Below are positions 616-16,029 of a stretch of 16,029 nt of DNA, piece by piece. Both the position numbers and the translations under genes were made by a program. Source of the DNA: a virus (taxonomy: Duplodnaviria > Heunggongvirae > Uroviricota > Caudoviricetes); the IMG/VR virus record IMGVR_UViG_2684622579_000002; one strand, given 5' to 3'. Numbering within the stretch: the stretch's first letter is position 1; each line of letters begins with the position of its first letter. Below the pieces are notes generated by a model. That model was not told the DNA's origin and ran no database searches. It worked only from the letters and a program-made list of their open reading frames with translations.

Positions 616-1485
<870 letters not shown>

Positions 1486-2699: not shown

Positions 2700-3326
2700 T
2701 TATATCTTATTCCCAAGTATTAACTGTGTTGAGCGAGCCATAATTCTAAATATAAATGGCATACCCTCTGTTAGCTCATCGAGTGTTGGCGTTCGCCTGC
2801 TTGCTTCCAAAAGTATTGAACGCAGAAACTCAACTTCTGGATCACATGCAATTTCTTCATCCAATGCCTTAAGTTTGCCTTTTATTTCTTTTATCTCTGA
2901 CAAACTATGGTTGAGGGTTTCACTTCCCTTTATTTCTGAAAGTATACGTCTTTCATGGTAATTAAGTTGCTCACGGAAAAACAATGCCATACTGGCTTTC
3001 TTTACTAAAAGCTCCATTTCCTTTCTTTTTTTCTCAAGATCTAAGATTTCTTCTTGAGTTGAGTTTTTATTCGTTTTTAGGGATTTTAACTCACTAATAG
3101 TCTTAGTTATGGACTCTAATGAAGTGGCCTCAAGCTGTTCTAAATCTGACTGTGTAATAGCAGGCTTCGACAATGAATAGATGCAAACAATAGTCATTAC
3201 AAAACCTACAATAGCCATCCCATTTAAATAAATTGGCAGTTCCAATTTATTTAAATACGCAAATAAACCACCTATAATGAAATAAGCCATACTTAACAAA
3301 ACCAGTACAGTACAAAACCGCCTCAT
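2700..3326 (-). CDS. Membrane-anchored coiled-coil protein (208 aa), function unknown
   Basis: Two N-terminal hydrophobic segments (VLVLLSMAYFIIGGLFAYL and GMAIVGFVMTIVCIYSL) followed by a charged heptad-like region (EEILDLEKKRKEMELLVKK). GAGG SD 6 nt upstream of the ATG at 3324-3326. Confidence 0.55.
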   Translation of the reverse strand: MRRFCTVLVLLSMAYFIIGGLFAYLNKLELPIYLNGMAIVGFVMTIVCIYSLSKPAITQSDLEQLEATSLESITKTISELKSLKTNKNSTQEEILDLEKKRKEMELLVKKASMALFFREQLNYHERRILSEIKGSETLNHSLSEIKEIKGKLKALDEEIACDPEVEFLRSILLEASRRTPTLDELTEGMPFIFRIMARSTQLILGNKI

Positions 3327-3754
3327 TCTAACCTCGTTAAATTTTTTTAGTTTATATGGTTAACCTACTAAAACCTTGTTCCCAGCATTTCGAGCAGGAA
3401 CTTTACGTTCCTCACTTGAGCAAGCTACTGCGGCAACACAATATCTTAACTTAATAAACTTAACTAGCAAGCTACTCATAACGTCCGCTCTTCGCTCATA
3501 ACAGACATAAACTTCAGTTATGGCATAAAGGTATGCATGCTGGGTGGGGAAAGTATGAAGGAAAAGAAGACTGCTGCGCCGTTTGTCGTCACGTTTATCT
3601 TCATTGGCTATGCAAGTCGTAATACAAGGTGGGACAAAACTGAGACACATAAGGCCTCGCAATGGCTTGCAAGGCTTTACATGTTTTGATGTAGTGGGAC
3701 GTGTGAGCGCAGTGTTGATGGGGTAATGCTTTGAATTAGAAGCGGATTCTTATA

Positions 3755-3800
3755 ATTCGTAATGCGAAGGTCGTAGGTTCGACTCCTATTATCGGCACCA
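3755..3800 (+). other. 46-nt 3' fragment of a tRNA-Thr(CGU)-like gene (anticodon loop through CCA) lacking the 5' half: probable att core or direct repeat at an island junction
   Basis: attcgtaatgcgaaggtcgtaggttcgactcctattatcggcacca contains an anticodon loop with CGT, a T-arm GGTTCGACTCC and an acceptor 3' strand TATCGGC-A-CCA. No complementary GCCGATA acceptor 5' strand is present upstream, so this is not an intact tRNA. Confidence 0.7.
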
Positions 3801-3964
3801 TCACCTAGTTTTCCCAAGTCAACCCACATCAACAAAATCATTTAAAAACATATATATTACGTTATTTTCATACGTTTGAGGTCAACCCTTGTCTCTTGAA
3901 ATCAACACGCGGTTGGGGGCACAATCAGGGGCATGTTCTGTTCGGTCTAGGAAATGTGCCCCCA

Positions 3965-5155
3965 ATGATGCTGAATGCCCGCAAGGTTGAAGCTGCGAAA
4001 GGAAAAGAGAAGAGCTACAAGCTGTTTGATGGAGGTGGCCTATACCTTCAGGTCGAACCTAATGGCTCGCGTTACTGGCGTATGAAATACCGTTTTGCTG
4101 GTAAAGAGAAACGATTGTCCTTTGGTGTTTATCCAACAGTCACACTTGCTGATGCCAGACAAAAACGAGAAGACGCGAAGAAACTACTCGCAGCAGGTGA
4201 AGATCCCGGCGAAGTCAAAAAAGCCAAAAAGCAGGCTTTAAATGCAGCGATTGAGACACTTAACCCATTCAGAGAAGTGGCGTTAGAGTGGCACAAAATG
4301 AAATCACCCAAATGGTCTGAGGGCTATGCTTCCGACATCATTGAGGCATTCGAGAAAGACATTTTCCCGCATATTGGGCACAGACCTATAGCTGATATTC
4401 AGCCCCTTGAACTGCTTGAAGTTCTGAGGTTGATAGAAGCTCGAGGCGCTATGGAGAAAGCGAAGAAAGTCCGTCAGCGATGCGGTGAAGTTTTTCGCTA
4501 TGCCATCGTAACGGGTAGGGCAATCTACAATCCGGCACCGGATCTTGCCAGTGCGATGCAAGGACATGAAGCAGTCCACTATCCATTCCTCAAAGCCAAC
4601 GAACTACCGGAGTTCTTTAATGCCCTTAATTCTTATTCAGGAAGTCCAATTGTATTGTTGGGGGCGCATTTACTTATCCTGACAGGTCTACGAACTGGAG
4701 AACTACGAGCAGGTGAGTGGCGAGAGGTGGATTTTGATAATGCGGTGTGGGAGATCCCAAAAGAACGTATGAAAATGCGTAGGAGCCATATTGTCCCGTT
4801 GTCAAAACAAGCATTATCCCATCTCAAAAGTTTGAAAGAACTAACTGGGAACTACCCGCTGATGTTCCCTGGACGCAACGATCCTAGCAAATTTATGAGT
4901 GAAGCAAGCATTAATCAGGTGTTTAAACGTATTGGATATGCAGGGCGTGTTACGGGGCATGGTTTCAGGCATACGATGAGTACAATCCTACATGAGAAAG
5001 GATTTAACAGCGCTTGGATTGAAACCCAGCTTGCTCATTCGGACAAAAACTCTATTCGTGGAATTTATAACCATGCCCAATATCTCGAAGGGAGAAGAGA
5101 AATGATGCAATGGTATGCTAATTATTTATCTGAGCTAATTGGTACTCATAAATGA
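3965..5155 (+). CDS. int: Tyrosine recombinase, P4-type integrase (about 396 aa)
   Basis: N-terminal MLNARKVEAAKGKEKSYKLFDGGGLYLQV is the characteristic P4-integrase N-terminal arm; C-terminal catalytic region has HGFRHTMST and a downstream tyrosine context (IRGIYNHAQY). Immediately follows the tRNA 3' fragment. Start placed at ATG 3965/3968 rather than the TTG at 3896 given in the ORF track. Confidence 0.9.
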   Translation: MMLNARKVEAAKGKEKSYKLFDGGGLYLQVEPNGSRYWRMKYRFAGKEKRLSFGVYPTVTLADARQKREDAKKLLAAGEDPGEVKKAKKQALNAAIETLNPFREVALEWHKMKSPKWSEGYASDIIEAFEKDIFPHIGHRPIADIQPLELLEVLRLIEARGAMEKAKKVRQRCGEVFRYAIVTGRAIYNPAPDLASAMQGHEAVHYPFLKANELPEFFNALNSYSGSPIVLLGAHLLILTGLRTGELRAGEWREVDFDNAVWEIPKERMKMRRSHIVPLSKQALSHLKSLKELTGNYPLMFPGRNDPSKFMSEASINQVFKRIGYAGRVTGHGFRHTMSTILHEKGFNSAWIETQLAHSDKNSIRGIYNHAQYLEGRREMMQWYANYLSELIGTHK

Positions 5156-6101: not shown

Positions 6102-6392
6102 ATGTTATCTAAACATGATAATACTACTTTGCAACGACCTTCAATGGATTCTCTGATCGATATGAAGTTTATTACTTCCGATTGTTTATTAAGTGATAAA
6201 TGGATTTATCGATTGATTTCTCTGAATCGCTTTCCAAAACCTATAAAAATAGGTCGGATGTCACGATGGCGCGCTGCTGATTATTATAAGTGGCGAGATG
6301 GGTTTGAAGAAAACTCAGGTCAACATTTTGAGGGAATGAGAAATAAGGCAAGAGCAATTAATAAAGGGAATAGATTATCACCTACTCCCTAA
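6102..6392 (+). CDS. alpA: AlpA-family phage transcriptional regulator (small DNA-binding protein)
   Basis: IYRLISLNRFPKPIKIGRMSRWRAADYYKW resembles the AlpA/phage regulatory protein HTH signature; GGAG SD 8 nt upstream of ATG 6102. Shorter starts at 6144 or 6162 are possible. Confidence 0.7.
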   Translation: MLSKHDNTTLQRPSMDSLIDMKFITSDCLLSDKWIYRLISLNRFPKPIKIGRMSRWRAADYYKWRDGFEENSGQHFEGMRNKARAINKGNRLSPTP

Positions 6393-6424
6393 GCCTTAAT
6401 TGATAGTTAGTAATATTTAACTGA

Positions 6425-6598
6425 TTAGCCTTTAGGGTCAATCCCGCGTGATTGGAGTTCTTTGCGTAAAATTCTTTTAATCCAAGTTGCCAACGCGCTA
6501 TCTCCATCTTTGCGCATTTCGTTTTCGAGTTGCAACCTAAAATCGTCGGTAAGACGCATTTGGAATGGTGGAGAACGTTTCTCTTGTGGTGTTGACAT
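6425..6598 (-). CDS. Arc/MetJ-type ribbon-helix-helix DNA-binding protein (57 aa), absent from the supplied ORF track
   Basis: Hand-translated minus-strand ORF MSTPQEKRSPPFQMRLTDDFRLQLENEMRKDGDSALATWIKRILRKELQSRGIDPKG; the PPFQMRL segment resembles the Arc N-terminal beta-strand motif (PQFNLR). Start codon overlaps a palindromic operator. Confidence 0.6.
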   Translation of the reverse strand: MSTPQEKRSPPFQMRLTDDFRLQLENEMRKDGDSALATWIKRILRKELQSRGIDPKG

Positions 6599-6638
6599 GG
6601 TAATTACCCTAGAATATGATGACTACATGGTAATTACC
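6595..6638. promoter_or_regulatory. Two copies of the 14-bp repeat ACATGGTAATTACC, each containing the perfect palindrome GGTAATTACC, 30 bp apart: putative operators
   Basis: Palindromes at 6599-6608 and 6629-6638; the first overlaps the start codon of the Arc-like gene, the second lies in its promoter region, within the divergent intergenic region 6599-6729. Confidence 0.55.
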
Positions 6639-6666
6639 ATTGTAAGTATAGTTCGCTTGTAAAAGC

Positions 6667-6701
6667 AATGCCCGATTGTGCGGGAACACAAATCGGGCAT
6701 T
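6667..6701. promoter_or_regulatory. 14-bp-stem inverted repeat (AATGCCCGATTGTG / CACAAATCGGGCATT, loop cgggaa) in the leader of the replication operon
   Basis: Arms 6667-6680 and 6687-6701 are complementary with one bulge; located 29 nt upstream of ATG 6730; no U-tract follows. Confidence 0.45.
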
Positions 6702-6729
6702 TAACCAACCGTTATAAGAGGTAACGAAG

Positions 6730-6906
6730 ATGGCTAAACAGAAGTGTACCTGGTTATTTGCGGCGATCAACCGCAGTCAACGCAATGCCCGTCCTGTGAT
6801 GTTAAGGATCACCGCAGATAACGAGCGGTCAGCGCGGCGCAGACTTGCCCCGGACTATGTACTGAGCTTTGCCGGGCGCATTCCCTGCGGAGGTGAACAT
6901 GCGTAA
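6730..6906 (+). CDS. Small protein (58 aa), first gene of the replication operon; possibly Icd-like
   Basis: Hand-translated MAKQKCTWLFAAINRSQRNARPVMLRITADNERSARRRLAPDYVLSFAGRIPCGGEHA; AAGAGG SD 8 nt upstream; stop overlaps the next gene start (ATGCGTAA). Family assignment is from memory and weak. Confidence 0.5.
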   Translation: MAKQKCTWLFAAINRSQRNARPVMLRITADNERSARRRLAPDYVLSFAGRIPCGGEHA

Positions 6907-7258
6907 TTATCCGCACCCCGGCGAACGCTGGCAGCATGAACGTGGCTGGACGGTCACGATTATCCGATTAATAGAAGCCTCGCCCTCTGTGGCGCTGGTT
7001 AATCCTGAATTCAGCTGTGAAGTGCTGATACGTCATGACAGCGACAACCAGCTTTCTTCCTGCCCTCTGGCATGGTTTGAACAGCGGTATACGCGCCTGT
7101 TTGATGTACCGCTCTTTAAGCCTGCACCAGCTCCTGCAGGCGGTAGTGGTTCCGGCCCGCTGACACTGCATCCGTCTGTGCTATTTATCCGCTGGCGGGA
7201 GCGTAGCATATGGCGTTCTGCTGAGCCTGACGACGGTCACTATTCAAAGTTTCTCTGA
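6899..7258 (+). CDS. Hypothetical protein (120 aa)
   Basis: ATG at 6899 preceded by GGAGGT; GC-rich codon usage consistent with neighbours; the ORF track extended it to an upstream alternative start at 6869. Confidence 0.5.
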   Translation: MRNYPHPGERWQHERGWTVTIIRLIEASPSVALVNPEFSCEVLIRHDSDNQLSSCPLAWFEQRYTRLFDVPLFKPAPAPAGGSGSGPLTLHPSVLFIRWRERSIWRSAEPDDGHYSKFL

Positions 7259-7289
7259 CAAAATACCGCTGAAAACGGAGTAATCCACG

Positions 7290-7574
7290 ATGAATATTTC
7301 AAACGGGCACAACGGTGCTCAGGGCCACACTTTGCCTGAAAAACACAATACCGGTGCTTTTGCCTATGGGTTGTCAGAGGACAGTTTCGGAAAGCTGACC
7401 CGCGCAAGAAATGCCTGCGACATGCTCCAGCTTCTCTTTTCTGAATACCCGTCTCAGGCCGGAGCACTGGACGCTGGCTGTGCGCATGGTGTCGCCGCGC
7501 TGATGGAGTACCTGCTGGCAGATTTGACGGATATTGCACACAGTTGCGCACTGATTGAAGGAGGTGCCAGATGA
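7290..7574 (+). CDS. Hypothetical protein (94 aa)
   Basis: ATG 7290 with GGAG 8 nt upstream; stop overlaps the next start. Confidence 0.5.
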   Translation: MNISNGHNGAQGHTLPEKHNTGAFAYGLSEDSFGKLTRARNACDMLQLLFSEYPSQAGALDAGCAHGVAALMEYLLADLTDIAHSCALIEGGAR

Positions 7575-7954
7575 ACCAGCCGCAGGTTTCCATTTTCCCG
7601 GCAGAAATGACCACCGCGCTTTACCGGCGGGCTATTGCTTCAGCATGGCGGCAGAAAATGCTGAACGAAACTGGCAGTGATCAGTATGGTCCGCACAGCC
7701 TGACGGTGGAGCGTATTGAAATGGCCATTGCGCTGCATATCGAGTGCGTACTGATTAACGAGTACGGCGAAGTGCAGGGCGCCGCTACCGCGCTGGCACT
7801 GCTGACTGACATGCTGGAGCCGTCACTGCTGACCGCGCCGCCGGTACTGACCGCGCGCGGCTGTGAAGTGATGGCGGAGATGTACCGCACGCTTCCGGCG
7901 GCCTTTGATGACTTCTGCAGTACCGGTGTGACGTTGTATGAGGGGGAAGTATGA
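7571..7954 (+). CDS. Hypothetical protein (127 aa)
   Basis: ATG 7571 with GGAGGT SD; ATGA overlaps at both ends indicate translational coupling into the primase gene. Confidence 0.55.
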   Translation: MNQPQVSIFPAEMTTALYRRAIASAWRQKMLNETGSDQYGPHSLTVERIEMAIALHIECVLINEYGEVQGAATALALLTDMLEPSLLTAPPVLTARGCEVMAEMYRTLPAAFDDFCSTGVTLYEGEV

Positions 7955-10623
7955 CAATACGGACGGTTACGCAGATTTCAGCCGCCGCACGGGGGAAATG
8001 GCCCGTTATTCTGCAGATGCTGCGTATTGATGTACCTGAAAACGGCAGGCACGGTCCCTGCCCGAAATGTGGGGGCAAGGATCGTTTTCGCCTTGATGAC
8101 CTTGACGGGCGCGGGACGTGGATCTGCAGCCAGTGTGGCAATGGTGACGGTCTGGATCTGGTTAAGCTCGTAACCGGTTACAGCGTCAGAAAGGCTGCGC
8201 AGGAGGTGGCGCAGGTGCTTAATGTGCCGGATGTGCAGGAACTGCCTGTTAAGCCTGCCAGACAAAAAGCCCCTAAACGAGACATGGGTCTTACCGTGGC
8301 GGCGCTGATGAAAGAGAGCCACACGGGAGAAAGCGCCTATCTGACAGGAAAAGGGTTCGCCGGATACCCGGCCTCTCTGACCGGAAGCGTGCAGCATATC
8401 AGCGGTAAGGATTTTCCTGCCGGTTCCCTGCTGTTACCACTCACGACCAACACCGGAGCCGTGACCGGTGCACAGCTTATCGCCCCGACGGGTGAAAAAA
8501 GCATACTGCCCGGCAGCACGATGAAAGGCGCGTTTGTGTCGCTCAGCCCGTTACCGTCTGAACCACCGGTACAGGTGGTGATTACCGAAGGTTACGCTAC
8601 GGCGCTGACGGTAAGCCAGCTCACTGCCGGATGCGTAGTGGCTGCCATATCTGCGGGCAACCTGCCCAATGTGGCGCAGTCGCTGCGGGCACGCTGGCCT
8701 GAGGTAAAAATTATCATCGCCGGTGATAACGATTTTCAGGACGGGGGTGAGAATCCCGGCAGAGCCTTTGCTGAACGGGCGGCAAAAGCTGTTGGCGGCT
8801 GGATGACGCTGCCACCAGGAGAGATTAAGGCTGACTGGAATGACTTTCATCGGGAGCACGGTATTACCCGTGCCCGTGAAGCCTTTCGCAACGGTCTGGT
8901 ACTGTGCGGGGAAGGCCGCACGCAACTGCCGCACGGGTTCCGTCTTACCCAGGAATATCTCTGGTATGAAAAGCAGGTACAGCGCAACGGTGAGACGGAG
9001 ATCCAGAACGTCAAAATATGCAGCCCGCTGCGCGTGACGGCAATTACCTGCGATGCCGATGGCGGTAACTTCGGACGACTGCTGGAATGGGAAGATACGT
9101 GGGGTGAGTGTCGCCGCTGGGCGATGCCAATGGAAATGCTGAGCGGCAGTGGTGAGGAACTGCGCCGGGTACTGCTGGTTAACGGGCTGTCTTATATCAG
9201 CACCACCGGTGAGGCACGCGCACGCCTGATGGAATATATCTCACTGTGTAAACCGGAACGCCGCGTGACCTGCGTCAGTCGTACTGGCTGGCATGGTCAG
9301 GTTTACGTCCTGCAGGATGAGGTCAGCGGTGAAGGTGCAGAGGGTGTCATTCTCCAGACCACTTCCGTGCAGGGGCGTGATTTCCGCGTGTCGGGCACAA
9401 CAGAGGAATGGCGGGAGCATGTATCCCGCTACTGTACCGGCAACTCCCGCGTGGCATTTGCTGTCAGCCTGGCCTTTGCTGCACCACTGTTACGGCTGGT
9501 TGGTATGGACGGCGGCGGCTACCACCTCAAAGGGGAATCGACAGACGGTAAGACCACCACCATGAAAGCGGCAACCTCCGTCTGCGGCGGGCCTGACTAC
9601 TGGCAGACATGGCGGGCCACCGGCAACGCGCTGGAGGGATGCGCCAGCCGCCGTAACGATGCCGCCATGATGCTTGATGAGATCCGGGAAGTTGACGGAC
9701 GCGAGGCAGGCAATATCGCCTACATGCTGGCAAACGGTCAGGGCAAGGGCCGTGCCGGTACGGACGGTGAGCTGCGTACCCGTAAGCAGTGGCGCCTGTT
9801 GTTCTTTTCAACTGGCGAGTTGTCTCTGACCGAACATGCGGCAAAGGCCGGTGAGCGTACTTTTGCCGGGATGGAAGTCAGGATGATCCAGATCCCCAGC
9901 GATTCCGGGAAGTTTGGCGTTTTTGAGGAGCTGCACGGCTTCGACAGCGGCAAGGCTCTGGCAGAGCATCTTGAATGGGCCACGTCCTGCTACTACGGTT
10001 CGCCGTTCCGGGAGTGGCTGAAAGCACTGACCGCTGATCTTAACGGACTAACGGCACAGGCAAAATCGCTGATGAAGGAATATGCTGCCGCCCTGACTCC
10101 GAAAGATGCAGGCAATCAGGTGGGCCGGGCTGTGAACCGCTTTGCACTGGTGGCGATGGCAGGTGAACTGGCAACCCGTCTGGGTATCACCGGCTGGCCT
10201 GAGGGTGAAGCACTGCGGGCAACCCGCGTCTGCCTGAACGCATGGCTGAAAGATCGCGGGCACACCGCCAATCAGGAAGATATCGCCGCACTGGAGCAGG
10301 TTCGCAGTTTCTTTACCGCGAATCAGTACAGCCGCTTTGCAGACTGGTATGACGAGCGCAACCGCCCCGGCAATATGGTGGGCTGGCGCAGGGTGGAGAA
10401 AGGCAGTACCGCGCAGGGCACGGAAGCTGTCACTACGTTCTATGTCATGCCGTCCGGCTGGAAAGAAATCTGCAGGGGATTTGACCCGCGCAAGGTGGCG
10501 CGTCTGTGCGCAGATCGTGGATACCTGCTGCCCTCCACTGATGGCAAACTCCAGACAACCATTCGCCCGCCAGAGATGAATCCCCGCAGGCTCTATGTCT
10601 TCAACAGCGAGGTGCCGGGTTAA
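7951..10623 (+). CDS. P4-alpha-like primase-helicase (890 aa): zinc ribbon, TOPRIM and C-terminal P-loop NTPase domains
   Basis: N-terminal CPKCGG...CSQCG zinc-binding motif; TOPRIM-like VVITEGYATALTV and IIIAGDNDFQD; Walker A-like GESTDGKTT. GAGGGGGA SD upstream of ATG 7951. Confidence 0.9.
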   Translation: MTIRTVTQISAAARGKWPVILQMLRIDVPENGRHGPCPKCGGKDRFRLDDLDGRGTWICSQCGNGDGLDLVKLVTGYSVRKAAQEVAQVLNVPDVQELPVKPARQKAPKRDMGLTVAALMKESHTGESAYLTGKGFAGYPASLTGSVQHISGKDFPAGSLLLPLTTNTGAVTGAQLIAPTGEKSILPGSTMKGAFVSLSPLPSEPPVQVVITEGYATALTVSQLTAGCVVAAISAGNLPNVAQSLRARWPEVKIIIAGDNDFQDGGENPGRAFAERAAKAVGGWMTLPPGEIKADWNDFHREHGITRAREAFRNGLVLCGEGRTQLPHGFRLTQEYLWYEKQVQRNGETEIQNVKICSPLRVTAITCDADGGNFGRLLEWEDTWGECRRWAMPMEMLSGSGEELRRVLLVNGLSYISTTGEARARLMEYISLCKPERRVTCVSRTGWHGQVYVLQDEVSGEGAEGVILQTTSVQGRDFRVSGTTEEWREHVSRYCTGNSRVAFAVSLAFAAPLLRLVGMDGGGYHLKGESTDGKTTTMKAATSVCGGPDYWQTWRATGNALEGCASRRNDAAMMLDEIREVDGREAGNIAYMLANGQGKGRAGTDGELRTRKQWRLLFFSTGELSLTEHAAKAGERTFAGMEVRMIQIPSDSGKFGVFEELHGFDSGKALAEHLEWATSCYYGSPFREWLKALTADLNGLTAQAKSLMKEYAAALTPKDAGNQVGRAVNRFALVAMAGELATRLGITGWPEGEALRATRVCLNAWLKDRGHTANQEDIAALEQVRSFFTANQYSRFADWYDERNRPGNMVGWRRVEKGSTAQGTEAVTTFYVMPSGWKEICRGFDPRKVARLCADRGYLLPSTDGKLQTTIRPPEMNPRRLYVFNSEVPG

Positions 10624-13122: not shown

Positions 13123-14082
13123 ATGCTAACCAGGGCTGAAAATATAAGAAAAATCACAAGCTATTTAGCTATTCTCTCAAGAGAGGTTGAGATTAGTGCC
13201 TCCCTCAATCTTTTGGATATCAACGTTCAAGCGGAATCTTTTTATAGAGATTTCTTAAACTTATGTTATGGATATAATTTAAGAAATACCAATAGTGAAG
13301 AGCAAAACTACCAAGCAATAGATCTTGCTGATGAAGATCGGAAGATTGCTATACAAGTAACTTCAACTTCTGACTTGGGAAAAATTAAGAATACAGTTGA
13401 TGGATTTATAAAAAGTAAGCAATATGAAAAATATGATAGACTAATTGTACTGAATATAACTGAAAAGAAAAAGCACAGATTGAAAGAGTATGGAATAGCC
13501 GGGTGCTATGTAATTAATATCAAAGATGATGTATGGGATTATAAGGATATAATTAGAAAGATAAACGATTTGAATGATTGTGATATATCAACAATATGCT
13601 CATTTTTGGAACGTAATATTAATACTAAAGCTGCTGATAAACCGCCGAAAGAAGTCACAACTATGTTTGCGATGATTGAATTATTGAGTGATGATGCTCA
13701 CCCATTGGCAGGAAATGGATTTATTGAAGAGCCTAATCCTGAAAATAAAATATATAAAAGATTTTCAGATTATTCAGAGCGGTTGATTGGCTTATATACT
13801 GGGTTAGCTCCATTATATAGTGGGATATTTAAGTCAATAAAAGAACAGAGCGATATTGGTATCGTAAGGTACCAAAAGATGAGTTTGTATTTAGAGTCAT
13901 TTAGTGATAAGGTCTTAAGAAGCCATGGTGGAGATCCTATCTTGGCGCTTAATTATTTAAAAGAATATTTTTCTAAACAACTGAGCCAGAGAAATGTAGA
14001 TTACGATGAAACAGCTATCAAATTTTTCTTAATTGAGAATTTAATTGCATGTAACGTCTTTCCTAATTCGGAGATTCTTTGA
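13123..14082 (+). CDS. Hypothetical protein (319 aa), putative effector of a three-gene system; N-terminal region possibly SMEK-like
   Basis: AGGGA SD 6 nt upstream; AT-rich codon usage. N-terminal LNLLDINVQAESFYRDFLNLCYGYNL...IAIQVTSTSD resembles what I recall of SMEK-domain proteins of ABC-three-component systems; unverified. TGATG overlap with the next gene. Confidence 0.65.
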   Translation: MLTRAENIRKITSYLAILSREVEISASLNLLDINVQAESFYRDFLNLCYGYNLRNTNSEEQNYQAIDLADEDRKIAIQVTSTSDLGKIKNTVDGFIKSKQYEKYDRLIVLNITEKKKHRLKEYGIAGCYVINIKDDVWDYKDIIRKINDLNDCDISTICSFLERNINTKAADKPPKEVTTMFAMIELLSDDAHPLAGNGFIEEPNPENKIYKRFSDYSERLIGLYTGLAPLYSGIFKSIKEQSDIGIVRYQKMSLYLESFSDKVLRSHGGDPILALNYLKEYFSKQLSQRNVDYDETAIKFFLIENLIACNVFPNSEIL

Positions 14083-14330
14083 TGTTAAGTTTTTTTTCGA
14101 AAGATGAGGATTTGACAAAATCCCCTCCTGTTGTAGGGGCTAAAATTCTTAATTTATTTGACGAAACAAAAAAAGAAAAAATTAGTATTTTCGATTTAGC
14201 AAAAGAATTAAAGAAAAACAACTCTCTAGGAGTGCGTGCAATTTATTTTGGAATGGTCTTTCTTTATACTCTTGATCTTATCGATTTCGATGAGCCATAT
14301 GTGATAAATAAAAATGTTAAGAATAAATAA
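14082..14330 (+). CDS. Small protein (82 aa), putative middle/adaptor component
   Basis: ATG 14082 overlaps the upstream TGA (14080-14082); its 3' end overlaps the ATPase start by 17 nt; AT-rich. Confidence 0.55.
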   Translation: MLSFFSKDEDLTKSPPVVGAKILNLFDETKKEKISIFDLAKELKKNNSLGVRAIYFGMVFLYTLDLIDFDEPYVINKNVKNK

Positions 14331-16029
14331 ACTATATAGCATACCAGAATCTTTTGAGCCAGTAAGCTTTGATAGTGGCATCAATATCATCTTAGGTGAA
14401 AAAGATGTTTCATCTAACAAAACTAATGGAGTGGGTAAAACTCTTTTAATAGAGTTTATTAATTTTTGTTTATTAAAAGAATTTAAGTCGAGTAGAGTTT
14501 CTAAAATTCCTCATTCTGATTTTTCGAAAGACATTTTGATATGCCTTGATTTTAATATTGATAATATTAACATTATATCCCAGCGTTCTATTGGGAAACA
14601 TAATGAGCCAACACTTGTAATAAATGGAAAAACAATAGAGTTTAGTGGATTAGATGATGCGTTATCTCATTTAAGCAATCTTATCTTTAAGAATAGTAAG
14701 GGTATACTTCATCCATCATTTAGAGCGATGCTGGGGCCTCTGATACGCGATGAACGATCTGAATTTAAATCTATTGTTGAGTGCTTCGACACAAAATTAC
14801 ATATACCTGCTGACTATACTCCTCATCTTTATTTGTTAGGTATTGATATTGCTCCCTATAAAGAGGCAAAGATTTTACAACGAGAAATAGATGATTTATC
14901 AACTACAAAAAATAAAATAAAGAGAGATATTGAATTTCTGACGGGAAAAAAAATTAGTTCTGCAAAGGCAGAGGTTAATGATCTTAAATCAAAAGTTGAA
15001 CATATCAGAAACGCTATGGATGCATTTGATAGCGATAGCAGTTATGAACTTATCAAAGATGAAGTAGAAGAATTAGAAAGTTCTTTAGAAGAGTTGCGGA
15101 ATAAAAGAACAATACTTAAGTTAGAGCTTTCAAGAATAAATGCTCTCGTTGGTGAAGTATACATAAATGATGATGAAGTAGTTGAAATTTATAATAAATT
15201 TAAAGTTGGATTAGGTGATGCTATCAAAAAAGAACTTAATGATGTTATTTCATTTAAGAAAAAAATAGATCACTTCCAAAACACTTTGTTAAATACGCGA
15301 AAAGAAACATTACTTTCTGAATTGCGTAAGATATCAGATAAGCTATATACAGTAAATAGACTTTATAAAGAAAAAGCTAGTGTTTTTGAGCAGGCGGGGG
15401 GGTTTAAAAGCCTGAAAATTTTAATAATGACTTATCAGAAAAAGTTAGAGGAGTATTCACAGTTATCTTCATTGCTTAAAAAATTTGAAGATTTCGATTC
15501 TAAATGGAAAGTTAAGAAGTCAGAACGCTCTTCTATGATAATTTCGTTAGATCTTTCTATTATGGATAACGAAAAAACGATTGAATCTTTTGAGGAAACC
15601 ATTTTATCAATCCATGAATATGTTTTTGGAAATAGAAAGTGTTCTTTCGAAATTAAGGCGACAGAGAAGAAAGAAACTATCTCAATGGATTTAAGAATTG
15701 ATGATGACGGTAGTCATAGTAATGAGCGAGAAAAGGTTTTCTTTTATGATTTGGCTCTTTTACTTACAGAAGAAACGTTTCGACGTCACCCTGGATTATT
15801 AATTCATGATAATATTTTTGATGTGGATCAAGATACATTAATTAAAAGCTTGAATTATTTGGCAGAGAAATCCAGTTGCTTAAATGATGCACAATATATT
15901 TTGACGTTAAATAGCGACAAAATTAGTGAAATTGATAAAAGAGATTTGAAACTAGATATTAACTTCTATAAGCGAGCTTCGTTAACTAAAATAAATAGAT
16001 TCCTGGGAAGGCATTATCAAGAAATATAA
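14314..16029 (+). CDS. ABC/SMC-type coiled-coil ATPase (571 aa; the ORF ends exactly at the window edge)
   Basis: N-terminal P-loop region NIILGEKDVSSNKTNGVGKTLLIEF; long charged helical middle (EAKILQREIDDLSTTKNKIKRDIEFL...); C-terminal Walker B-like GLLIHDNIFDVD. TAA at 16027-16029. Confidence 0.8.
   Translation: MLRINKLYSIPESFEPVSFDSGINIILGEKDVSSNKTNGVGKTLLIEFINFCLLKEFKSSRVSKIPHSDFSKDILICLDFNIDNINIISQRSIGKHNEPTLVINGKTIEFSGLDDALSHLSNLIFKNSKGILHPSFRAMLGPLIRDERSEFKSIVECFDTKLHIPADYTPHLYLLGIDIAPYKEAKILQREIDDLSTTKNKIKRDIEFLTGKKISSAKAEVNDLKSKVEHIRNAMDAFDSDSSYELIKDEVEELESSLEELRNKRTILKLELSRINALVGEVYINDDEVVEIYNKFKVGLGDAIKKELNDVISFKKKIDHFQNTLLNTRKETLLSELRKISDKLYTVNRLYKEKASVFEQAGGFKSLKILIMTYQKKLEEYSQLSSLLKKFEDFDSKWKVKKSERSSMIISLDLSIMDNEKTIESFEETILSIHEYVFGNRKCSFEIKATEKKETISMDLRIDDDGSHSNEREKVFFYDLALLLTEETFRRHPGLLIHDNIFDVDQDTLIKSLNYLAEKSSCLNDAQYILTLNSDKISEIDKRDLKLDINFYKRASLTKINRFLGRHYQEI

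Follow-up and report, generated by a model that had tools for sequence, protein, structure and literature searches.

Immunity of the satellite phage P4 is the textbook case of repression by RNA alone. When a P4-like satellite carries none of the P4 immunity RNAs in the place where P4 has them, what could keep its replication genes silent? The question is raised by a short region between the integration and the replication genes of a satellite contained in a DNA stretch of 16,029 nucleotides, which we call the window and to which coordinates refer unless another locus is named. A preliminary description of this region proposed a small, unannotated, divergent gene for an Arc-like repressor with twin palindromic operators, and suggested that it could replace the RNA-based immunity described for P4. 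The founding paper on the Gram-negative islands leaves their global repressor unclear and describes AlpA as an activator, and the cf-PICI paper describes AlpA alone. In a literature search that covered subscription journals thinly, we found no P4-like satellite or PICI for which a ribbon-helix-helix (RHH)/Arc repressor or an antisense RNA had been described.

The satellite and its regulatory slot

Matches to Pfam and NCBIfam, together with the RefSeq annotation of an identical E. coli locus (L001), identify in the window the gene set of a P4-like satellite, namely an integrase, an AlpA/Vis regulator, an alpha-type primase, Psu, a Sid-like Psu paralogue and an Ogr/Delta zinc finger; the same sources identified no Epsilon/Ash among the satellite genes. 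The integrase gene (3896-5155) is followed by an ORF of unknown function, which is interrupted by IS1 in L001. The gene of the AlpA/Vis-like regulator (6102-6392, plus strand) lies upstream of the early operon and is co-directional with it. Its product scores 20.6 bits with Pfam Phage_AlpA, marginally below the cut-off of 21, and matches the PHROG family 'excisionase and transcriptional regulator' (E 1.6e-6). The early operon starts with an Icd-like ORF (6730-6906, plus strand; NCBIfam NF033153, E 5.5e-24) and continues on the same strand (6899-10623) with orf119, orf94, a DUF5375 gene and, as its last member, the gene of an alpha-like Toprim/DUF927 primase-helicase (7951-10623). Two Psu-family genes and the Ogr/Delta gene are found 3' of the primase-helicase gene.

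A 100% identical stretch is present in E. coli chromosomes. The left flank differs from that of L001 (window 3300-3965), so the integration context differs between the two. The window contains no tRNA gene, and in L001 a tRNA-Thr gene lies 165 bp before int. Defence-type genes flank the satellite core on both sides (1-2560 and 13123-16029): upstream of int are a resolvase (1-555), a PD-T4-3 GIY-YIG protein (616-1440, minus strand) and PDC-S31 (1886-2560), and after delta are a SMEK_N protein, an MC6-like small protein and a DUF2326/AAA protein (PDC-M68B).

In P4 and in the window alike, a slot extends from vis/alpA to the Icd-like ORF that heads an epsilon/DUF5375/alpha operon. The P4 slot, between vis (ORF88) and the Icd-like ORF, holds the C4/CI RNA, isrK and c4-a1b1, and an Rfam search of P4 detected all three (C4 with 74.9 bits). 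In contrast, neither C4, isrK nor a1b1 gave a match in the window at the Rfam gathering score, or at E<=10 within 6300-7400, and no homologue of the repressor described below was found in P4. The proposal that the locus stands in for P4 immunity was therefore borne out as far as the shared slot and the absence of C4, isrK and a1b1 are concerned; it was not borne out as a purely protein-based replacement, as the predicted module includes a cis-antisense RNA. The old 'cI gene product' CDS of P4 (8168-8584 of L072), labelled 'transcriptional repressor', takes in the C4/CI RNA and has the Icd-like ORF (8365-8168) as its last part. The PHROG families matched by the Icd-like proteins carry the same label, which was probably inherited from the P4 annotation, and Pmp8_0007 is likewise labelled as such.

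A conserved small gene divergent from the early operon

The slot of the window contains, as the preliminary description had claimed, a minus-strand ORF of 57 codons that runs from ATG to TAA (6425-6598), and it is indeed divergent from the operon that the Icd-like ORF heads at 6730. We found 85 homologues with 54-98% identity, almost all of 56-58 residues, in Escherichia, Shigella, Citrobacter, Salmonella, Pantoea, Erwinia, Yersinia, Xenorhabdus, Photorhabdus, Gilliamella, Pasteurella and other genera, a range that covers Enterobacterales and Pasteurellaceae. Length and reading frame are kept across genera, and codon comparisons gave a median dN/dS of 0.10 at dS ~1.6. A lack of conservation in related elements had been named as a finding that would speak against the gene; the ORF is conserved and, judged by the codon comparisons, is a real gene under purifying selection.

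It could be argued that no protein is made from the ORF and that the conserved region is merely a promoter and a regulatory RNA, for the ORF is short, the copy in the window has no family match, and RefSeq missed the ORF in O157:H7. We regard this as scarcely credible, given a dN/dS of this order at such divergence, the constant length and frame, and the predicted RHH fold of the product. We therefore continue with the reading that the ORF encodes a protein. The description of the gene as unannotated was right for the O157:H7 homologue and wrong for the 100% identical E. coli locus, where RefSeq lists the product as the hypothetical protein WP_001605077.1. In O157:H7 FRIK944 (L073, 7001-7174, minus strand) an intact homologue with the same GGTAATTACC operators is absent from RefSeq, and a long 'Icd-like' pseudogene is called across it on the opposite strand (6558-7151).

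A consensus scan found a terminator-like hairpin with a T-run on the minus strand at 6365-6390, 3' of the repressor gene and within the 3' end of alpA. It has no T-rich tail on the plus strand, and we infer that it belongs to the repressor gene. A toxin-antitoxin reading, with the RHH protein as antitoxin, was rejected, because the window has no co-directional partner ORF and the terminator-like hairpin comes next. In the capsid-forming island (L073, 6770-6958, minus strand) and in EcCICFT073 (L076, 9243-9416, minus strand), the repressor gene is followed by a conserved arginine-rich ORF of ~57-62 residues (MTDKELTKTLSPARKRRRRK...) with the same orientation, which is absent from the window.

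Predicted fold of the 57-residue protein

Comparison with profile models of the RHH/Arc group, which the preliminary description had suggested, had a divided outcome. The window protein itself gave no match at the Pfam or NCBIfam thresholds, and its homologues P0042 (75% identity) and P0071 (72%) passed the cut-off of Pfam Arc (PF03869; 21.3 and 22.0 bits, cut-off 20.4). Weak Arc matches were obtained for 13 of the 42 family members. Distant relatives collected by an exhaustive profile search match HicB, Arc, RHH_1, RHH_5 and NikA-like models, and PHROG 228 ('Arc-like repressor') was matched as well. The hhalign alignments of the protein with Arc and with Mnt are in register and place RSPPFQMRLTDDF on KMPQFNLRWPREV of Arc and on DDPHFNFRMPMEV of Mnt.

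AF2 modelling with a diverse alignment predicted an extended N-terminus, a helix at residues 18-31, a G-D-S turn and a second helix at residues 36-50 (pLDDT 79), and this run superseded one with a shallow alignment that had returned a single long helix. The layout that we derive, a beta-strand at about residues 10-16 (PFQMRL), helix A (18-31), the GDS turn and helix B (36-50), has the RHH signature of an N-terminal strand and two helices with a G-x-(S/T/N) turn between them, and the top Foldseek matches of the predicted structure are NikR and Arc. The best sequence matches in the PDB were designed helical repeats, which we dismissed as composition artefacts. Taken together, the Arc scores of homologues, the hhalign register and the diverse-alignment model back the RHH candidate of the preliminary description, and we accept an Arc-like RHH fold with moderate confidence, since the window protein scores below the thresholds and the evidence is transitive and structural.

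Two predicted operators flank the -10 box of the early promoter

Upstream of the Icd-like ORF we predict an early promoter on the plus strand (6592-6620), with a -35 box TTGACA (6592-6597), a 17-nt spacer and a -10 box TATGAT (6615-6620). It matches the consensus at 11 of 12 positions and would start transcription at about 6627. Its spacer is filled by the first predicted operator, O1 (6599-6608), which has the sequence GGTAATTACC and sits between the SD and the start codon of the repressor mRNA. The second, O2 (6627-6640), reads ATGGTAATTACCAT, with a core (6629-6638) identical to GGTAATTACC; relative to the early promoter it takes up positions ~+1 to +12, and the predicted start of the repressor's own promoter also falls on it. 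The two identical 10-bp palindromes, 30 bp apart from start to start, are present as described before. They are the sole exact copies of GGTAATTACC in the 16-kb window, both are intergenic, and both belong to a 14-nt direct repeat, ACATGGTAATTACC. A search of the window for further operators gave near matches at chance level (10 observed, 5.8 expected). One-mismatch copies occur within the primase gene at 8577-8586 and 9039-9048 (GGTGATTACC and GGCAATTACC).

Two details of the earlier account need correction. The start codon of the repressor gene (6596-6598) does not overlap the palindrome; it abuts the 10-bp core and overlaps just the extended repeat of 12-14 nt. The spacing of 30 bp, which had been equated with three helical turns, holds in the window, but among lineages it lies anywhere between 27 and 35 bp, so that the phase is not conserved. 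We have accordingly rejected helical phasing as a conserved operator feature, and this range of spacing does not support cooperative binding on the same face. What is constant, in the loci compared, is that the operators flank the -10 box.

The -35 box overlaps codons 1-3 of the repressor gene. In ~45 non-redundant related loci TTGACA is invariant at this position, as it is in all loci in which the N-terminus MS(T/I/S) is conserved. It persists also in loci that use GTG or TTG as start codon, and Ser2 is always encoded by TCA, which points to selection on the -35 box itself. In nearly all related loci a -10 box is found after 17-18 nt. About 45 non-redundant loci, drawn from many genera, have the same succession of start codon, O1, -10 box and O2, which is more than expected by chance. 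In Pantoea leporis the segment of O1 and O2 is the most conserved intergenic stretch (88-93%, compared with 60-75% elsewhere).

The number of sites differs among loci. Gilliamella (L008 and L021) has a third operator copy upstream of the repressor gene, where GGTAACGACC flanks a perfect TATAAT on both sides, and this TATAAT would serve as -10 box for the repressor gene. Yersinia and Pectobacterium loci have a third, partial site, and the window has two sites alone.

The predicted promoter of the repressor gene

For the repressor gene we predict a promoter on the minus strand (6639-6668), with a -35 box TTGCTT (6668-6663), an 18-nt spacer and a -10 box TACAAT (6644-6639) that abuts O2. It would be weak, matching the consensus at 8 of 12 positions. 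In loci of the GGTAATTACC type, the arrangement TTG(C/T)TT-17/18-TA(C/A)AAT is found again 40-41 nt ahead of the ATG, with its -10 box next to O2. As the start site would fall inside O2, negative autoregulation of the repressor is implied by this geometry.

A predicted cis-antisense RNA over the start of the early operon

Between O2 and the start of the Icd-like ORF lies a second conserved element, which the preliminary description overlooked. We predict here a cis-antisense RNA of ~76 nt on the minus strand, from ~6735 to ~6660. Its parts are a stem P1 (GCCA/UGGU), a hairpin P2 (6710-6726) and a terminator hairpin (6667-6701) with a U-run behind it. The loop of P2 carries an anti-SD sequence, and the RNA is complementary to the SD (6716-6721) and the AUG (6730) of the first early gene.

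Several lines of evidence assign the RNA to the minus strand. The Alifold consensus energy is -25.7 kcal/mol on this strand, compared with -17.7 on the plus strand, and for single sequences the minus strand has the lower minimum free energy in 31 cases out of 31. G.U pairs number 85 on the minus and 10 on the plus strand, and the U-run after the long hairpin averages 5.6 of 9 positions on the minus strand as against 1.3 of 9. Compensatory changes are found in 14 of the 22 pairs, with 96.5% of cells paired, a result that none of 500 shuffles matched. We considered whether the hairpin at 6667-6701 could instead be a sense-strand leader or an RNA like CI of P4, and rejected this reading because there is no C4 match, the fold is better on the minus strand, the two strands differ in their G.U pairs and a U-run occurs on the minus strand only.

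The promoter of the antisense RNA would be located within codons 5-14 of the Icd-like ORF (6743-6770, minus strand; -35 box TTGATC at 6770-6765, 16-nt spacer, -10 box TACACT at 6748-6743). In 38 of 38 non-redundant loci, a TAnnnT hexamer precedes the conserved AGCCAT at a distance of exactly 7 nt, irrespective of whether the ORF that follows encodes an Icd-like protein, a primase or another product. From the minus-strand fold, the U-tail, the compensatory pairs and this conserved TAnnnT we conclude that a cis-antisense RNA of ~76 nt probably is expressed and belongs to the module. The tail of its terminator would also provide the -35 region for the repressor gene. R1, a covariance model derived from the alignment, gave one match per related locus and no match in P4. 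The sole resemblance in Rfam is to symR (RF01809), at 31.6 bits (E 8e-4), a long way short of the gathering score of 61; the predicted antisense RNA would represent a family absent from Rfam.

Pairing of operators with recognition strands

Palindromic sites are also found at related loci in which the sequence differs from GGTAATTACC, and across four lineages they co-vary with residues 8-14 of the strand. This gives indirect support to a dimer of the RHH kind, which would insert a two-stranded sheet into the major groove at a symmetric site. Proteins with the recognition strand KRSP(P/Q)(F/Y)QMRL are paired with GGTAATTACC, those with KRSPQFPMRL with GGTATATACC, those with K(T/S)(D/Q)QYQ(I/L)RL with TGTAATTACA and those with RRGNPPFQFRL with GTGTAATTACAC. 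Position 13, which corresponds to Asn11 of Arc by alignment, changes from Q to P together with the centre of the palindrome. As there are four operator types, part of this covariation could reflect shared ancestry. Together with the conserved geometry of promoter and operators, it supports the proposal of the preliminary description that the layout is that of an autoregulated repressor over an early operon.

The covariation also bears on who binds the palindromes. They could be bound by another protein, such as AlpA/Vis, the integrase, or a helper-phage or host factor, with the RHH protein acting elsewhere or in the manner of an anti-repressor or antitoxin. This is very unlikely in our judgement: the operator sequence tracks the recognition strand of the RHH protein and not the neighbouring genes, the repressor operon contains no toxin gene, and no other exact copies of the operator are found in the window. 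We therefore prefer the reading that the RHH protein would bind the palindromes itself.

Exchange of the repressor region is seen in Pantoea stewartii and Enterobacter soli. From ~6716 rightwards, their early operons share 95-100% identity with the window; left of this point identity falls to ~57%, and a different repressor with GTGTAATTACAC-type operators is found. The exchanged block is large and takes in the integration genes. Such mosaicism would be the pattern expected of exchangeable immunity regions, and variants of operator and recognition strand would define immunity groups of satellites.

Distribution and putative sister cassettes

The Arc-like module occurs in 646 of 5426 complete E. 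coli genomes; in 443 (~8% of the 5426) the match covers at least 80% of the query. Its carriers include an element of O157:H7 that resembles capsid-forming islands and the Pasteurella element Pmp8. On chromosomes are 655 of the 657 occurrences in E. coli.

This distribution matters to another reading of the module, that it is mainly a copy-number controller of the plasmid kind, like CopR/RNAIII of pIP501 or CopG/RNAII of pMV158, and not a determinant of lysogeny or immunity. The likeness to these plasmid systems is real and is taken up below. We consider the reading unlikely as the main account, since the loci examined are all chromosomally integrated (in E. coli, at the places just counted) and the controlled promoter drives the Icd-like gene and others as well. 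Roles in copy number and in immunity are not mutually exclusive, and in what follows we take the module to act mainly as an immunity and replication switch.

In EcCICFT073 and in a P4-like element at tRNA-Leu, the same slot encodes a divergent protein of ~60 residues that belongs to the YlcI/YnfO family (slots at 9474-9853 of L076, E. coli CFT073, and at 3203-3582 of L074). The protein family is a different one, related by hhalign at an E of ~9e-4 only, and the operators are direct repeats (GTGCGATTCA three times; GTGGGCCACACC twice) in place of palindromes. The architecture recurs nevertheless: repeats are located in the spacer of a TTGAC(A/G) promoter and just 3' of its -10 box, the first gene is Icd-like, and the same antisense RNA is predicted, with R1 scores of 53.8 and 70.8 bits. 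The YlcI/YnfO-type locus looks like a sister immunity cassette in EcCICFT073, the reference Gram-negative island; the literature searched contained no characterisation of this type.

A two-layer model of the switch

The computational evidence makes it probable, in our view, that an autoregulated repressor and a cis-antisense RNA together form a two-layer immunity and replication switch. We argue that a dimer of the Arc-like RHH protein would bind both GGTAATTACC palindromes. Since O1 lies in the spacer and O2 at the start of the early promoter, their occupancy would keep the replication genes off; this promoter, a strong one of the sigma-70 type, is predicted to drive the operon of the Icd-like, orf119, orf94, DUF5375 and primase genes. 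Because O2 would also span the start of the weak divergent repressor promoter, the repressor should limit its own synthesis. The second layer would act on transcripts that escape repression. The antisense RNA, made from the promoter in the first early codons and ended by the terminator just before the repressor promoter, would mask the SD and the AUG of the first early gene, and blocked translation of the Icd-like ORF may lower downstream expression through polarity, for which icd-ant of P1 provides a precedent. Since the antisense promoter faces the early promoter, shutting the latter should also favour synthesis of the antisense RNA, and such an effect has been shown for CopR of pIP501.

How the switch could be induced is a matter of speculation. 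Transcription driven by AlpA could read through, antisense through the repressor gene, into the early operon, in a way that would resemble PLL of P4. The hairpin at 6365-6390 is T-rich on the minus strand only, so AlpA-driven transcription would run through it. Against our reading of the module stands the published work on Gram-negative islands, in which induction is activated by AlpA and no such repressor is mentioned.

It is conceivable that the module has a wider meaning. We put forward, as a tentative proposal that we hold to be possible more than probable, that repressors of the RHH type (Arc-like or YlcI/YnfO-like), combined with a shared antisense RNA, are the missing 'global repressor' of Gram-negative islands and many P4-like satellites, that they are exchangeable immunity cassettes whose variants set incompatibility groups, and that helpers override the switch, for example by AlpA read-through. 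A module of this kind would explain the silence of the satellites, the swaps of regulatory regions between elements that are otherwise near-identical, and which satellites exclude each other. Its repressor gene is one that genome annotation sometimes misses. The module thus offers a concrete, testable candidate for satellite silencing, P4 itself being silenced by a different RNA.

Comparison with known systems

Like the immunity of P4, which involves the PLE leader and the CI/C4 RNA with its seqA and seqC targets, the module would serve to silence the early operon. The RNA of P4, however, is processed from the sense strand, whereas the RNA predicted here is a cis-antisense RNA from the opposite strand. 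SaPIs and PICIs provide another parallel in phage satellites, as the divergent repressors Stl and Rpr likewise lie between the integration and replication modules. Stl proteins, however, are large repressors of the HTH kind, and helper proteins lift their repression, whereas the module described here would combine a 57-residue RHH protein with an antisense RNA. The resemblance to SymR/SymE is one of architecture only: SymR is an RNA of ~77 nt whose promoter lies within the first codons of its target and which covers the SD and AUG, and the target gene is unrelated.

The closest analogues, on our best reading, are immI of P22 (mnt/sar) and the plasmid pair CopR/RNAIII. In immI of P22, the RHH repressors Mnt and Arc, the overlapping promoters Pant and Pmnt and the antisense RNA sar form one control region. 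By geometry and comparative evidence, the module would share with it a small divergent RHH repressor with an operator over a strong promoter, and a short cis-antisense RNA over the ribosome site of the downstream gene. The differences are in the details. The P22 operator is a single site bound by a tetramer, whereas two separate 10-bp palindromes flank the -10 box here; Mnt has a C-terminal tetramerisation domain that the 57-residue protein lacks; P22 controls arc-ant, whereas the genes downstream here are the Icd-like gene, unknowns, DUF5375 and the primase gene; and sar had no Rfam match in the window.

In plasmids, replication is controlled by a repressor and a countertranscript together, as with CopR/RNAIII of pIP501, CopG/RNAII of pMV158 and CopB/CopA of R1. 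There, as proposed here, a small repressor (of the RHH type in CopG) and a cis-antisense RNA act on the 5' part of a replication operon, with converging sense and antisense promoters, which in the window would lie ~108 bp apart. The plasmid repressor is co-transcribed with its target, however, whereas the gene described here is divergent and belongs to integrated satellites, and there is no sequence relationship between the two. Judged by its sequence features, the module would therefore be a switch of a known kind, like that of P22 immI or of CopR/RNAIII, in a setting that was previously undescribed and with an RNA layer added.
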